In this document: piece by piece, positions 58,901 through 64,000 of the stretch
How the letters are laid out: each line of letters begins with the position of its first letter
Position numbering within the stretch: position 1 is the first letter of the stretch
Origin: Synchiropus picturatus
Taxonomy: Eukaryota
NCBI GenBank assembly: GCA_044231675.1
Contig: CM094664.1
Coordinates: 14,232,162-14,296,161 of the forward strand
DNA length: 64,000 bases
Direction: 5' to 3'
Translations under genes and position numbers: made by a program
The notes under the pieces: generated by a model
Seen by the model: only the letters and a program-made list of their open reading frames with translations
Database searches by the model: none
What the model was told of the DNA's origin: nothing

Positions 58901-60923
58901 AGCGCGGATCTGCTCTGTCGTCAGCTTGCCTGCAGGAGGGGGCCGGAGGAAGTTAGCTCAGCGAAACAACGGACGAGGGGGAGGAAGGTTCTGACCAAGA
59001 GGAGCTTTGCGGGTGTCGAACTTCATCTCCAGCACACACTCCTCCATTGCCTTCAGGTCACAGATGAGCTCCAGCAGAGAGCGGACCTTCTCATGCAGCG
59101 TTGACTCTCTTTTGGTGACTGGGCTGTCCACCTGGCTCTCCTCCTGAAACAGGCAGAGGCAGCGACTTTACTTTTCCTCTTTCACTTTATCATCTCTACC
59201 TTTTTCTATTTTGTATCTTACCTCGCCCTCACCTCCTCTGCCTCTTGTCCTTCTTCACTCATCTACCTATCCTTCCCGCCAGTCCCTCACACTCTCCCTC
59301 TTTCCTCCGCCCCTTGTCCTCTCTCTCTCTACACTGGTCCCTCCACCTTCTAAAGATCAGCTCACCTTCTCAGGAGCGCTGTAGTCCATCTGCACCATGT
59401 CGTACTTTCCAGCCACCTTCTCAAACTGGGCCCTGTGGTCCCACTCGTTCTTGGTCTTGTCCAGGAACCTGCATCACCAACAATTTATTTGAATCATATT
59501 AAAACACGACACAAACACAAACTAACTTTTTCTTGAAGAGGTCTTTGGCCTTCATCAGATCGCCACCGCACAACGTCAGACTGTTCTGACCCACTTTGCC
59601 CACTGAAGAGAGGAAAATGAGCTTCATTTTCATGGAGACAAAGACGACAGGATCTCTGGGCTCACCTCTGCCCCACCTCATCCACACACTGTAGAGCTTG
59701 GAGCTGTCATCCTTCAGGAGCTGAATCAAGTAATATTTGTTGTTGTTGAATTGAAGGTTCGTCTGAGAGAAACAAGATGCTCTTTAGTTTCTATCCATCC
59801 ATCCTCTATTTGTCTGAGGTCAGGTCGTGGAGGGAGCTGCTCATGTACAAAGGTCCATCGCATGGTTTATATGTATGTGTTCACAACATCACACACTACG
59901 TTCTGTCAGTTACCTGGTTCAACATCACATCGTAAACATCGCTGCCTTCGCTGTAGACATGAGCCTGATGAGGAAAAACAGAAACAACAATCCTCTATTT
60001 TGTCCGACACACAACAAACAAGTTATCATTGATGTGCTCCACAAGAAGAGACTTCATTCCACAGTTAACAGGCCACTTCACCTTTCCGACTTTGGCTTTA
60101 CACTCTGGGTCCACCGGAGCTTTTCCCTTCATCACCACCGTCCTCACCACCTCTGAGAACACAACAACTTGAGCTGGATATTCTATTTAAACATGAACAT
60201 AAACGTGATGAAGACTCACCTTCTGCTTTTATTTCCTCTTTGGGTTGTTTGTCAGCTGTTGCTTGGCTCTTAGCTCTGCCTCGTTTCCTCTTGGCAGGCG
60301 GCTGATCTTCACTCTCCTCCTCTTCCTCTTTAATTGACGCGGCATTTTTAGTTATTTCTCCGCTGTCATCCACCGCGTTTTCTGAAAACAACACGAAAAT
60401 TGTAGCCCACCTGAGTCACAAAACTTGAAACAAAACACAGACCTGGTTTCACCACATGACAGCGAATCTTCCTCTTGTACTTGGTGACAGGGTTCGTCTG
60501 AATCATCTTCTTCAGGTCCACATCATAGACGGTCCCGGAGGGTGCGGTGAGAGACAGTGAGGTCTGTCCTGAGGCGACGGCGGCGTCCAGCAGGGAGCTG
60601 TCGGCTGAGGAGTAGGGTTCCCACTGGTCCTGGTCTCCCTGCCACTGCCACACTGCTGACAAGTCTCTATCGTTAACATTAAACCACTCTCGCAATATTT
60701 TTCTATGATTTACTAATATCTGCAGGCTCCTTATATTCGAGTGCATTTTGACTGTTTGGGGTATATTCCTGAATATGGCTCTCAACAGTGCATCGCAGCC
60801 TCCATGTCCGGACATGTCCAACCCTGTTCATGCGCACGCTCGACACTCACCGGTGGTTTTGGGAACGTCTTCTTCTTCTGTGGCATTATTGCGTTTACAC
60901 CTGGCGCTCCTGTTTCGCCTCAT
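55806..60923 (-). CDS. parp2: parp2, poly(ADP-ribose) polymerase 2 (gene-level CDS span; ~16 exons), with an extra N-terminal WWE-domain exon
   Basis: Minus-strand exons match human PARP2 nearly colinearly. The basic N-terminal region is ..[13 protein letters not shown]... The WGR domain is [16 protein letters not shown] | [17 protein letters not shown] | [32 protein letters not shown] | [27 protein letters not shown]. The regulatory domain is ..[21 protein letters not shown]... The catalytic domain is ..[21 protein letters not shown].. | [33 protein letters not shown] | [19 protein letters not shown].. | ..GKHSTKG.. | ..[28 protein letters not shown]... Human PARP2 ends ..[28 protein letters not shown]. 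Confidence 0.9.
56051..56175 (-). CDS. parp2: parp2 catalytic exon [41 protein letters not shown](L)
   Basis: The acceptor is gtgtgtccAG and the donor is GTAAGT. It contains the catalytic Glu of the ..LLxEVALG.. region. Confidence 0.85.
56241..56339 (-). CDS. parp2: parp2 catalytic exon [33 protein letters not shown]
   Basis: Identical in 17 of 19 residues to human [19 protein letters not shown]. The acceptor is tttttcAG and the donor is GTCAGT. Confidence 0.9.
57472..57571 (-). CDS. parp2: parp2 catalytic exon (R)[33 protein letters not shown]
   Basis: The PARP signature H-G-S is present. The donor is GTAGGA. Confidence 0.85.
57641..57768 (-). CDS. parp2: parp2 catalytic-domain exon ([42 protein letters not shown])
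   Basis: The acceptor is ttttgtgaAG and the donor is GTGACG. Nearly identical to human [42 protein letters not shown]. Confidence 0.85.
60220..60381 (-). CDS. parp2: parp2 basic/NLS exon ([54 protein letters not shown])
   Basis: A ~60-bp intron (GTCTGT..ttttcAG) separates it from the WWE exon. The donor is GTGAGT at 60219. Confidence 0.75.
60443..60655 (-). CDS. parp2: parp2 WWE-domain exon (..[70 protein letters not shown])
   Basis: It matches the WWE consensus W-x-W-..-W-x-P-Y-..-Y-x-[IV]-D-[FL]-x-x-M-x-Q-T-N-x-V-T-..-R-x-I-R (cf. RNF146 YEIDFRAMTQTNLVTGTQRPIRR). The exon is flanked by ..tcAG acceptor and GTCTGT donor. The phase-1 end plus 'aa' of the next exon gives GAA, continuing into [11 protein letters not shown]... 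Confidence 0.7.
60851..60923 (-). CDS. parp2: parp2 predicted coding exon 1 ([24 protein letters not shown] + 1 nt; donor GTGAGT)
   Basis: The basic Arg-rich start resembles human PARP2 (MAARRRRSTGG..). The phase-1 end joins in-frame to the WWE exon acceptor. An alternative is that translation starts at the in-frame Met at 60821 or 60746 within a longer first exon. The WWE domain remains in-frame under either model. Confidence 0.5.
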
Positions 60924-61526: not shown

Positions 61527-64000
61527 ATGTCTTCTCGGAGCTTCAGAGTCAATTTGTTGTGTCACCGGACGAGCGTGATGAGGATGATGCGGAGGGTGAG
61601 TGAAGTTTGCGGGTGTCATTGAACGCATCATCACTATGACAGAGGTCAGGCACCGAAAAAAACCCTTCGACGATCTGAAACTAATAAAATAGACGTTTAT
61701 TAAGTGAGGAATCATTATGGACGCATTTCTTTCCTGCCCTCTTTCCTGGCTATTGCAATCCAAACCATTCATAAAATCAGTAATATTCTGTGGTTTGTGA
61801 AGAATTTTCAGTTCTAATTTGTCCGTATATGTCCAACATTATTTCGCAGGCAATGACTGCAGAGGCAAGAGTCCAACCCCAGGCAGACTTCCTGAAGGGG
61901 AACCAACACAAACGACACCCGGGCATCAGCAGCATGAAGACTCTGCGGCTTCCTGTGGAGCTCCAGGCAGCTGCGTGCTCCGTCATCAAGAGTAGGTTTG
62001 TTTATTTTATTGACACCTTTTTCTTCTGATGTCTGGTCATGTTCACTCATCCGACCCTGCAGAAGCGAACATTCCACAACTTGAAGAGCAAGCTCATCGT
62101 ATGAAGAACGTCCTGTGGAGCAGGAAAAGAGCGGTGGAGGAGTCAGCTCTGAGGAAGAAGGCCGTGGGTCTGGAAAAGGAGCTGTGGGAGAAAGCTATGT
62201 TGAAGCGAGGCGGTGAGTGACTCATACGCTCCACACAATGTTGGTTGTGAAACTCTGCTTGTGCCCTTTAAATGCAGATGATGATGAGCCAGCTCTAGAG
62301 GAACAAATCCAGAGGAGAGTGCTGTCTGAGCTCAGAAGAACGACGTACCGCTGGACCCCCATCAAGTAAAATACTTACTTTGTTTTCAAATCACAATCCA
62401 CCAAGTCCTGATCCAGTTGCGGGTGTAGCTGCAGTGTTTCTGCCGCTGACATGTTGAAAATACAGAGTATCAAAAGTGACTATCTCTGTGTTCCAGGTAC
62501 AATGAGGAGACCAGTGTAGTCTACATGGCAGCCCGGCTAGCTGGGGGTTACGCAGCAGTGAGGAGAGCTTTGAATGAGGTTAGTGGCCATATCTAAAGAT
62601 GGCACCTACGTGTGCGCCATCTAGTGGGCTAACGCTGCATACACTTGTTCTAAAGTTCTAAAAAGAAAGTGTCTGCTCCTCAGATCAAAAAGCGAGACCC
62701 TGCTTTCGCCCCCGAGTCTCTGCTGGACTTCGGGTCTGGGCTGGGGAGTGTGGCCTGGTCAGTGCTGCGACGGCTTGAGCGTCTTAACTCACCGTGATGT
62801 TCTGAATCATCATCCTCTGAATCACCGTCTCATAGGGCGTCGCACTCCTGCTGGCCTGACTCGCTGAAGGAGCTGGTGTGCGTGGACAGCTCCGGCACCA
62901 TGAACACTCTGGCGGAGCGACTTCTCAGAGGTCCACGTTCCACACTGTGTTGTCTGATAACAGATGATTCTCTCTTTTATTTACACAACTGATGTTGTTG
63001 CAACAGGAGATGAAGAAGAAGGGGAGCCCAGATTCAAACATGTGTACTTCAGACAGTTTCTTCCTCTTTCTCCAAAGGTACCAGACCCGGTTCTGCTTGT
63101 CAGTCCACCTTTTTTATAATGTGAACTGTTTTAACACGAGCAGAAATGAATCGTGCATCTGTAGTCACCTGATCACTGCAGTCATGTGACTCATATGAGA
63201 CGACAGGATCTCTGAATTATTTATCCCACAGGTCCAGTTCGACCTGGTGTCGGCTGCGTTCACACTGTCCGAGCTGCCTGGCGTGAAGGAGCGAGAGGAA
63301 GCTGCGTTCACTCTGTGGAGAAAGACCAACAGATACCTGGTCAGTTACCAGTCTGGACCAGGACACGAGACAAAAACATACTCTGCAGAAACAGAAACAC
63401 ACAATTAAACACACTTGAATATGCCTCACACACAAACCCAATCAGAAAAAATTCATCCAAAATCATTTCATACACACACAGGTGTTGGTGGAGAGCGGAA
63501 CCAGAGAAGGTCACCAGATGCTACTGGAGGTCAGAGACGCTCTGCTGCAGGTGAGAGTGCAGACCCTCTCACGTACATCATCAGCTTCTGACTCGATTCT
63601 GTGCTTCTAGAACCAGGAGAAGACGGTCCATGACAGCAGACCTGCTTCCGTCTTTGCTCCGGTACGGTTCACTTTCATGTCATGGCTTCATCCCTGCTGT
63701 TGTGTGTTGATGTACTTGTGATGTCTTCCAGTGTCCTCACGAGCTGCCGTGTCCCAAGCTCGCGCTGAAGCCGCCGGCCCCCTGCAACTTCCAGCAGGTT
63801 CACCACCCGCTGCCTCTGACTGGGGTGAGACTTGTCAGAGCTCCACACCTTGCTGAGTCGTCTTTGATCTTCATTCTTGTGGTGTTCAGAAGCCCGACAT
63901 GCAGACGGAGAAGTTCAGCTACCTGATCCTGACTCGGACCGCGGCACCGGTCCCCAATGGGGACTCCGACCCGGACTGGGCACGACTGATCTCGCCAGTG
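61527..64000 (+). CDS. mettl17: mettl17 (mitochondrial methyltransferase-like 17 / Rsm22 homolog), 5' part of gene; 13 coding exons within the window: 61527-61595, 61850-61991, 62063-62212, 62278-62365, 62497-62578, 62684-62757, 62836-62930, 63007-63077, 63232-63339, 63482-63550, 63611-63661, 63732-63824, 63890-64000 (partial)
   Basis: Exon 1 is MSSRSFRVNLLCHRTSVMRMMRR, resembling a mitochondrial presequence. Later exons match human METTL17: ..HKRHPGISSMKTLRLPVELQAA.. (hs HRQHPGILKLPHVRLPQAL), YMAARLAGGYAAVRRA, the SAM motif LLDFGSGLGSVAW, VQFDLVSAAFTLSELP, TLWRKT, VLVESGTREGH and FAPCPHELPCP (hs FVFAPCPHELPCP). All junctions are GT..AG with consistent phases. The gene continues beyond position 64000. 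Confidence 0.88.

Follow-up and report, generated by a model that had tools for sequence, protein, structure and literature searches.

The 64,000-nucleotide stretch of the Synchiropus picturatus genome analysed here (the window) raises the question of whether a fish parp2 gene encodes a WWE domain in its N-terminal part, whether such an architecture would be new, and which ligand the domain might read. The explanation that we favour, with a probability of about 0.78, is that the region represents an intact teleost parp2 gene at its 5' end, exon 2 of which encodes one complete WWE domain, an ancestral remnant that is probably a PAR reader. The domain follows a short N-terminal peptide, which is conserved, and precedes the basic-WGR-regulatory-catalytic core.

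The gene could be modelled from start to stop codon (Table 1), and the encoded protein has the domain order WWE-basic-WGR-PARP_reg-PARP. Exon 1 encodes 24 residues and the first base of the following codon, and it has its MRRxRS N-terminus in common with annotated teleost PARP2 proteins (P0001-P0007, P0013-P0016, and P0020-P0021). The junctions from exon 1 over the WWE exon to the basic exon are in frame and canonical (GT/AG), all of them in phase 1. An in-frame N-terminal WWE exon in parp2 had been proposed in an earlier note on this DNA, and the gene model bears this out: the interval named there, 60443-60923, comprises the WWE exon, exon 1 and the intron between them and nothing else, the phase-1 end of exon 1 (donor GTGAGT) joins the predicted tcAG acceptor (tgtcAG) to read ...KTT-A-VWQWQ, and the intron of about 60 bp that was expected between the phase-1 end of the WWE exon and the basic exon has 61 nt. 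The upstream in-frame ATG from which the WWE frame was said to be open lies at 60815, and the frame stays open as far as a TTG at 60821; if intron 1 were retained, the frame of exon 1 would reach a TGA, while translation from the ATG at 60815 would nonetheless continue into the WWE domain. The basic exon reads E-NAVDD...KRKRGRAK...KAE, is the counterpart of the basic region at the N-terminus of mammalian PARP2 and was matched by tblastn to residues 23-77 of the annotated protein P0009. The motifs LLWHGSR, GIYFAD and YNEFIVY, which, as established for PARP1 and PARP2, represent the H-Y-E triad of poly-ADP-ribosylating PARPs, are all present in the model. The only neighbouring gene on the 5' side of parp2 is located on the opposite strand. 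In mammals, the RNase P RNA gene sits head-to-head with parp2; an Rfam scan of the whole 64-kb window gave no match to an RNase P RNA gene in this arrangement.

Table 1. Structure of the parp2 gene of Synchiropus picturatus; positions refer to the window.
Feature	Position	Strand	Description
parp2 gene	60923-55806	minus	17 exons, 647 aa, intact
Exon 1	60923-60851	minus	73 nt, ATG at 60923, donor GTGAGT, ends in phase 1
Intron 1	60850-60656	minus	195 nt, GT...AG
WWE exon	60655-60443	minus	213 nt, acceptor tgtcAG, donor GTCTGT, phase 1 at both ends
Intron 2	60442-60382	minus	61 nt, GTCTGT...TTTTCAG
Basic/acidic N-terminal-region exon	60381-60220	minus	162 nt, acceptor ttttcAG, phase 1 at both ends
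WGR exons (n = 5)	60152-60082, 59964-59914, 59762-59666, 59602-59527, 59468-59366	minus	model residues 184-263
PARP_reg (helical) exons (n = 4)	59143-58996, 58929-58791, 58636-58573, 58481-58347	minus	
Catalytic-domain exons and stop codon (n = 5)	57769-57642, 57571-57472, 56339-56241, 56175-56051, 55965-55806	minus	

Searches with Pfam profiles confirmed the identity of the domains. The 71-aa peptide of the WWE exon (residues 25-95 of the model) matched the WWE profile PF02825 over positions 1-66 of 67 with 68.9 bits (E = 5e-19; gathering score 21.1 bits), which is far above chance level, and in the context of the full 647-aa protein the domain still reached 63.6 bits. In the same 647-aa model, the WGR profile (PF05406) scored 84.6 bits (85.8 in a separate search), PARP_reg 154.6 bits at residues 296-426 and PARP 254 bits over positions 1-199 of 199. 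Among the 120 matches listed, almost all of those with a name were poly [ADP-ribose] polymerase 2, the exceptions being generic or uncharacterised names and a single 'PARP1-like' label on a paddlefish fragment. Judged by these similarities, the gene is a PARP2 orthologue, a Clade 1 DNA-damage PARP that is closest to PARP2 and not to PARP1 or PARP3.

In the WWE fold, six strands make up a half beta-barrel, over which a single alpha-helix is packed (PMC11269756). The AF2 model of the exon peptide, for which two PDB-derived sequences had been left out of the input alignment, has a pLDDT of 92.4 and predicts just these elements, namely strands at residues 2-6, 12-14, 33-37, 43-47, 52-54, and 61-67, with the helix formed by residues 17-29 (exon-peptide numbering). 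When the model was compared with the PDB using Foldseek, the top 24 matches were all WWE domains, led by TRIP12 and HUWE1 (TM 0.85-0.87) and followed by RNF146; by sequence as well, the closest solved structures were those of TRIP12 (E = 1e-9) and HUWE1. In the genomic contigs of two other fish (L004 and L007) the exon order, the AG/GT sites and the phase-1/phase-1 WWE exon are all the same, and a short intron is found at the position of intron 2. The WWE exon is 72-73% identical in nucleotides to these loci, versus 52-57% for the flanking introns, and a dN/dS of 0.20-0.26 (dS about 0.9-1.0) against the orthologous exons shows that it is under strong purifying selection.

These results also bear on the idea that the WWE stretch lies outside parp2, whether as a chance open reading frame, as a pseudo-exon or as an exon of some other transcript, upstream of parp2 or overlapping it. 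Apart from its Pfam E-value, the stretch has canonical splice sites of compatible phase and is located on the parp2 strand, flanked by the conserved exon 1 and the basic exon. The sole neighbouring gene on that side has the opposite orientation, L004 and L007 show the same exon boundaries and phases, and annotated proteins of more than a dozen species, vertebrates as well as a mollusc, combine the WWE domain with WGR and PARP domains. We give this reading practically no weight, and a chance open reading frame or a separate upstream gene is effectively refuted by the Pfam score, the splice phases and the conserved exon boundaries.

A WWE-bearing PARP2 had been taken in the earlier note for either a lineage-specific architecture or an unannotated isoform, and neither proposal holds. 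PARP2 proteins with PF02825, PF05406, and PF02877 (in part also PF00644) are annotated in Champsocephalus, Ataeniobius, Oryzias, Phycodurus, Prochilodus, Dissostichus, Labeo, Collichthys, Gouania, Channa, Clarias, and Haplochromis. Outside the teleosts, this domain combination is found in PARP2 of a frog (Leptobrachium), a paddlefish (Polyodon) and a mollusc (Littorina), each of which has two WWE stretches according to Pfam. The statement that mammalian PARP2 lacks a WWE domain stands, as PF02825 was absent from all mammalian PARP2 proteins among the matches listed. Moreover, non-mammalian PARP2 bearing a WWE domain at its N-terminus has already been described (Perina et al., 2014; PMC4245714). 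WWE-PARP2 is an ordinary, already published architecture outside mammals, and the result of the genome scan, albeit correct, carries little weight by itself since the architecture was annotated and published before.

Since the WWE domain is present in non-mammalian PARP2 (PMC4245714, together with the annotated proteins), the WWE-less mammalian form, and with it the textbook layout of PARP2, is the derived state. The WWE domain of S. picturatus was not acquired but is a remnant of an ancestral metazoan PARP2 N-terminus with two tandem WWE domains, a state still present in the mollusc, the paddlefish and the frog; teleosts have retained only the second domain and mammals have lost both. Intron 1 is too short to conceal an exon for another WWE domain, and this possibility was rejected.

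Inclusion of the WWE exon in the parp2 mRNA of S. picturatus is predicted from the gene structure, and the WWE-containing form may not be the only, or even the main, product. Because the exon is phase-symmetric and has 213 nt, it can be skipped without a break of the frame, and annotated models of eight teleost genera skip it in exactly this way: Larimichthys, Cyprinodon (as 'isoform X2'), Thunnus, Megalops, Tachysurus, Brachyhypopomus, Scleropages, and Electrophorus. Some other annotated teleost models start at an internal methionine within the WWE exon. The coexistence of models with and without the domain suggests that inclusion may be regulated, as for a cassette exon. It is conceivable that the exon is mostly skipped in S. 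picturatus, so that the main Parp2 would be mammalian-like (...KTT-E-NAVDD) and the WWE form minor or tissue-specific. We consider this unlikely, however, given that a dN/dS of about 0.2 and an intact pocket show that the exon is translated and functional, that models with the WWE domain exist in many species, and that the label 'isoform X2' of a skipped form suggests that the longer form was ranked first. The exon 1-WWE-basic junctions are outside the span of the two cDNA-like Logan contigs with PARP2 homologues of related fish, one of which (L001) has a retained intron directly 5' of the exon starting with EVVKTVVMKGK, while the other (L002) begins within the basic exon. A query with the N-terminal 180 aa returned mostly isolated open reading frames of the WWE exon on short genomic contigs and supplied the orthologous loci L004-L007.

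With regard to the ligand, the exon peptide has the Trp/Trp/Glu signature motif, and across PARP2 WWE domains from mollusc to fish as well as in TRIP12 and HUWE1, W5, Q53, N55, and R62 are invariant and W12 and T58 nearly so, while all second-WWE sequences retain Y44. The conserved pocket residues coincide with the ligand contacts of TRIP12 and HUWE1 (PMC11269756). According to the roles assigned to their counterparts (PMC11269756; PMC10877565), Trp5 (position 29 in the full-length protein) would stack on the adenine, to which Gln53 (77) would form hydrogen bonds, Tyr44 (68) and Arg62 (86) would contact the proximal phosphate, and Asn55 (79) and Thr58 (82) would provide further contacts.

The designation of the domain as 'iso-ADP-ribose-binding' in the earlier note was too specific, and its claim that, apart from this case, vertebrate WWE domains occur only in mono-ART PARPs and RNF146/DTX overlooked HUWE1 and TRIP12, which carry the closest relatives. 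The WWE domain of RNF146 (PDB 3V3L), the canonical iso-ADP-ribose reader, has the same fold (TM 0.82, rmsd 1.1 A, 26% identity), and its adenine-binding Gln, phosphate-binding Tyr and Arg, and Trp114 (here W12) have equivalents in the fish domain. In RNF146, however, Tyr107 forms a hydrogen bond to the distal ribose of iso-ADPr, the preference for which is also set by a basic loop that contains Arg110 (PMC11269756), whereas the alignment of the fish domain places Trp (W5) at the position of Tyr107, as in HUWE1 (Trp1619) and TRIP12 (Trp771), followed by the acidic loop GDQDQ, which has no basic residue and resembles the Asp-Asp loop of HUWE1/TRIP12. An iso-ADP-ribose-reader label by analogy to RNF146 is unwarranted for fish PARP2. 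The TRIP12 and HUWE1 domains prefer ADPr or a terminal ADP moiety (PMC11269756), and the shared Trp and acidic loop predict that terminal ADP-ribose/PAR is read rather than iso-ADP-ribose. By this analogy, the fish PARP2 WWE domain most likely binds the ADP-ribose units of PAR in the manner of TRIP12 and HUWE1, through the terminal ADP/ADPr. The fish domain has Tyr at the position of TRIP12 Thr825 and HUWE1 Asn1674, a position at which the HUWE1 exchange N1674T left the binding of PAR 11-mers unchanged (PMC11269756).

An intact WWE domain might also have ceased to read ADP-ribose and serve for protein-protein interaction or stabilisation, a role that has been suggested for the diverged WWE domain of PARP14. 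Some WWE domains do not bind PAR, among them that of PARP14 (PMC10450202), and the TRIP12 domain binds PAR 11-mers weakly despite its conserved pocket (PMC11269756), which implies that an intact pocket is no guarantee of strong PAR binding; the literature searched yielded no PAR-binding measurement for any WWE domain of PARP2. On the other hand, all pocket residues that contact adenine and phosphate in TRIP12/HUWE1 are kept in S. picturatus, the four invariant ones from mollusc to fish, and in fold and sequence the ligand-bound TRIP12/HUWE1 structures (TM 0.85, 38% identity) resemble the domain far more than PARP14 does (14% identity). The loss of ADP-ribose reading seems quite improbable to us.

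If the domain is a PAR reader, as we expect, it would help to bring or hold Parp2 at sites that are already PARylated, for example by Parp1, and it would add to the PAR/DNA binding of the adjoining basic region, which is documented for human PARP2. A more far-reaching and rather doubtful extension holds that the teleost WWE domain is a TRIP12/HUWE1-type reader of terminal ADPr on a regulated cassette exon, whose inclusion would switch Parp2 from DNA-break-guided to Parp1-dependent, PAR-guided recruitment or activation, and that PAR binding by the disordered N-terminus of mammalian PARP2 might have taken over the function of the WWE domains that were lost. The ligand and role of the PARP2 WWE domain are of importance for how PARP2 is recruited by PAR made by PARP1 and for how mammals could dispense with the domain.

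Compared with known systems, the gene product has the same order of WWE, basic, WGR, PARP_reg, and PARP regions as non-mammalian PARP2, including that of many fish (PMC4245714). Annotated teleost PARP2 proteins are 55-70% identical over the first 330 aa and match in the MRRxRS N-terminus and exon structure. PARP2 of frog, paddlefish and mollusc has two WWE domains where S. picturatus, like other teleosts, has one; nothing essential differs. The best matches of the WWE domain in sequence and fold are those of TRIP12 and HUWE1 (PDB 9BKS/9BKR and 6MIW/8RD7; for TRIP12 9bks, E = 1e-9, 38% identity, TM 0.85, rmsd 0.8 A), which share with it the Trp where RNF146 has Tyr107, the acidic loop and the Tyr, Gln, Asn, Thr, and Arg contacts, and differ from it by the Thr825/Asn1674 equivalent, which is Tyr in fish PARP2. 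Their hosts are HECT E3 ubiquitin ligases, whereas the host here is a PAR polymerase and ligand binding is predicted. Mammalian PARP2 is orthologous in the WGR, regulatory and catalytic regions (55-62% identity over the WGR and regulatory part of the 330-aa query) and has the basic KR-rich N-terminal region in common with the fish protein, but not the WWE domain, and its PAR recognition is attributed to the disordered basic region instead of a folded reader domain. A feed-forward loop between PAR reading and writing, as suggested in the earlier note, is a reasonable expectation, but PARP2 already offers a precedent: in the human protein, the N-terminal region binds PAR although it lacks a WWE domain, and both PAR-dependent activation and PAR-stimulated synthesis of branched chains require it (PMC6089979), the same kind of reader-writer coupling as the WWE domain would give.

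The 5' splice chain of parp2, which lies on the minus strand of the window, was reconstructed manually. Exon 1, the WWE exon and the basic exon are joined in frame with canonical GT/AG signals and phase 1 junctions, and the conceptual product, whose basic region includes AKRKRGRAK, is identical to the one read in an earlier note made from the sequence alone. The note also had the WWE frame open from an upstream in-frame ATG; we find that this frame extends upstream as far as 60821 and that the ATG lies at 60815. A Pfam search with the 71-aa peptide of the WWE exon matched the WWE profile over positions 1-66/67 (68.9 bits, E = 5e-19; gathering score 21.1 bits), and the exons downstream of it scored 85.8 bits for WGR, so that the WWE domain is confirmed far above chance level. 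A full gene model, obtained by tblastn with two teleost PARP2 proteins and a subsequent search for frame-preserving GT/AG pairs, comprises 17 exons from 60923 to 55806 and encodes 647 aa. The catalytic His, Tyr and Glu motifs (LLWHGSR, GIYFAD, YNEFIVY) were found in this model, and by its sequence the gene looks intact and functional.

Exons of the parp2 5' end (window coordinates) and Pfam domains of the 647-aa model (residues)
Feature	Position	Strand	Details
Exon 1	60923-60851	minus	73 nt; starts with ATG 60923; donor GTGAGT; ends in phase 1
WWE exon (exon 2)	60655-60443	minus	213 nt; acceptor tgtcAG; donor GTCTGT; phase 1 at both ends
Intron 2, between WWE exon and basic exon		minus	61 nt
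Basic exon (exon 3)	60381-60220	minus	162 nt; acceptor ttttcAG; phase 1 at both ends
WWE domain	residues 25-89		63.6 bits
WGR domain	residues 184-263		84.6 bits
PARP_reg domain	residues 296-426		154.6 bits
PARP catalytic domain	residues 440-641		254 bits

The search for homologs with the 330-aa N-terminal model led to annotated teleost PARP2 proteins that combine WWE, WGR, PARP_reg and PARP domains (Champsocephalus, Ataeniobius, Oryzias, Phycodurus, Prochilodus, Dissostichus, Labeo, Collichthys, Gouania, Channa, Clarias, Haplochromis). The window's model and these WWE-bearing proteins share the N-terminus MRRxRS..., directly spliced to VWQW.... Moreover, the exon order is repeated in genomic contigs of two other fish (L004 and L007): a short intron separates the WWE exon, again with an AG acceptor, a GT donor and both ends in phase 1, from the basic exon downstream. 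Nucleotide identity was 72-73% in the WWE exon versus 52-57% in the neighbouring introns, and a dN/dS of 0.20-0.26 at a dS of about 0.9-1.0 indicates that the exon is under purifying selection. Two cDNA-like Logan contigs from other fish, one with a retained intron (L001) and one incomplete at the 5' end (L002), did not reach across the WWE junctions. In the latter (Logan SRR19345912, positions 1-50), a TAA lies in frame within the basic-exon region, immediately before the called start Met (KRRRGQSKTQTEKE*MPKEK); an assembly error, a polymorphism or a genuine truncating change in that species might explain it.

Both the WWE exon and the basic exon begin and end in phase 1, so that skipping of either one leaves the frame intact. 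Annotated teleost PARP2 models without the WWE domain fall into two classes. Those of the first start at an internal Met of the WWE exon and still include part of it; these look like truncated models, or might reflect an alternative start. In the second, the WWE exon is cleanly skipped and MRRxRS... is joined straight to the basic exon (for example in Larimichthys, Cyprinodon 'isoform X2', Thunnus, Megalops, Tachysurus, Electrophorus and Scleropages). A few models (Collichthys, Gouania, Takifugu) skip the basic exon instead. In-frame skips of one or other exon, corresponding to 60220-60655 on the minus strand of the window, are seen in the annotated proteins P0014, P0016, P0018, P0020, P0021 and P0053. 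These models suggest that the PARP2 N-terminus is modular and alternatively spliced, and inclusion of the WWE exon in the window's species may be constant or occasional.

The earlier note took the architecture to be lineage-specific or unannotated, and this does not hold: the same search found WWE-bearing PARP2 in the frog Leptobrachium, the paddlefish Polyodon and the mollusc Littorina, and the architecture is already known from publication and from annotation in many genomes. PF02825 is missing from all mammalian PARP2 proteins among the matches listed. "Bird, frog and fish" have been given as examples of WWE-bearing PARP2 (Perina et al., 2014; PMC4245714); the frog and fish examples match our searches. 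The bird example is internally inconsistent and not to be relied on, because PARP2 is later called undetectable in birds in the same paper. An earlier survey placed WWE domains in clades 2 and 3 only (Citarelli et al., 2010), which may be the reason for the textbook picture of PARP2 without WWE.

Two WWE stretches each were detected by Pfam in the Leptobrachium, Polyodon and Littorina proteins. We thus read the ancestral metazoan PARP2 as having carried tandem WWE domains, of which teleosts retained the second alone and mammals neither. A hidden additional WWE exon in intron 1 was ruled out here, since this intron, at 195 nt, leaves no room for it. At the position of the phosphate-binding Tyr (Tyr44 of the exon peptide), the first WWE of the tandem proteins carries Leu or Met instead and may therefore be a weaker or non-binding copy; by alignment, teleosts have kept the copy whose pocket is complete.

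Head-to-head with parp2 is a gene for an Rsm22/METTL17-like mitochondrial methyltransferase (61830-64000, plus strand; 114.6 bits for Pfam Rsm22 with the exon ORFs concatenated), which continues past the window end. From its likely start codon (ATG near 61934; MKTLRLPVELQ...) to the parp2 ATG the distance is roughly 1 kb, so that a single bidirectional promoter region probably serves both genes. Mammalian PARP2 is reportedly head-to-head with the RNase P RNA gene, as Amé and colleagues are said to have described in 2001. The Rfam scan of both strands of the window (1-64000) gave nothing above gathering score, so an RNase P RNA gene does not adjoin parp2 here; the METTL17-like gene sits in its place.

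Among solved domains, the nearest in sequence to the window's WWE are those of TRIP12 (9BKR, E = 1e-9) and HUWE1 (6MIW). An AlphaFold2 model based on an alignment of 14 PARP2 WWE sequences (pLDDT 92.4; six strands, one helix) found only WWE domains among its best 24 structure matches. It superposed best on TRIP12 (TM 0.85, rmsd 0.8 A, 38% identity), then on HUWE1, with RNF146 behind both (TM 0.82, 26% identity). In WWE domains, a conserved Gln hydrogen-bonds the adenine, which is stacked by a Trp (Tyr107 in RNF146), while the proximal phosphate is bound by a Tyr together with an Arg; Asn820, Thr823 and Thr825 of TRIP12 make further contacts, and TRIP12 and HUWE1 favour ADPr over iso-ADPr, the terminal ADP moiety being what they seem to recognise (Münzker et al., 2024; PMC11269756). 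At the aligned positions the window's WWE has Trp5, Tyr44, Gln53, Asn55, Thr58 and Arg62, and W5, Q53, N55 and R62 are invariant in all PARP2 WWE domains aligned, TRIP12 and HUWE1. The sole contact unlike TRIP12/HUWE1 is Tyr60 (Thr825 in TRIP12, Asn1674 in HUWE1). The earlier note had called the domain iso-ADP-ribose-binding. Both features credited with the iso-ADPr preference of RNF146 are, however, missing: the Tyr107 hydroxyl, the residue being Trp, and the basic Arg110 loop, replaced by GDQDQ, which resembles the Asp-Asp loop of TRIP12/HUWE1. Given also the ADPr preference of the latter, we find no support for this label, and "ADP-ribose/PAR-binding, TRIP12/HUWE1-like" would be the better prediction. 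The earlier interpretation is supported in part: a genuine WWE domain is encoded in frame, but the architecture is neither lineage-specific nor unannotated and the domain is not RNF146-like.

Literature searches returned no ligand-binding measurements for any PARP2 WWE. Most likely, the WWE would act as a folded PAR/ADP-ribose reader that brings Parp2 to PARylated chromatin or holds it there, and would thereby link Parp2 to Parp1 output. The concept of a PAR reader is not new for PARP2. Indeed, the N-terminal region of human PARP2, which has no WWE, binds PAR and is required for PAR-stimulated activation and branched-chain synthesis (Chen et al., 2018; PMC6089979). The fish Parp2 model has both a WWE domain and a basic region.
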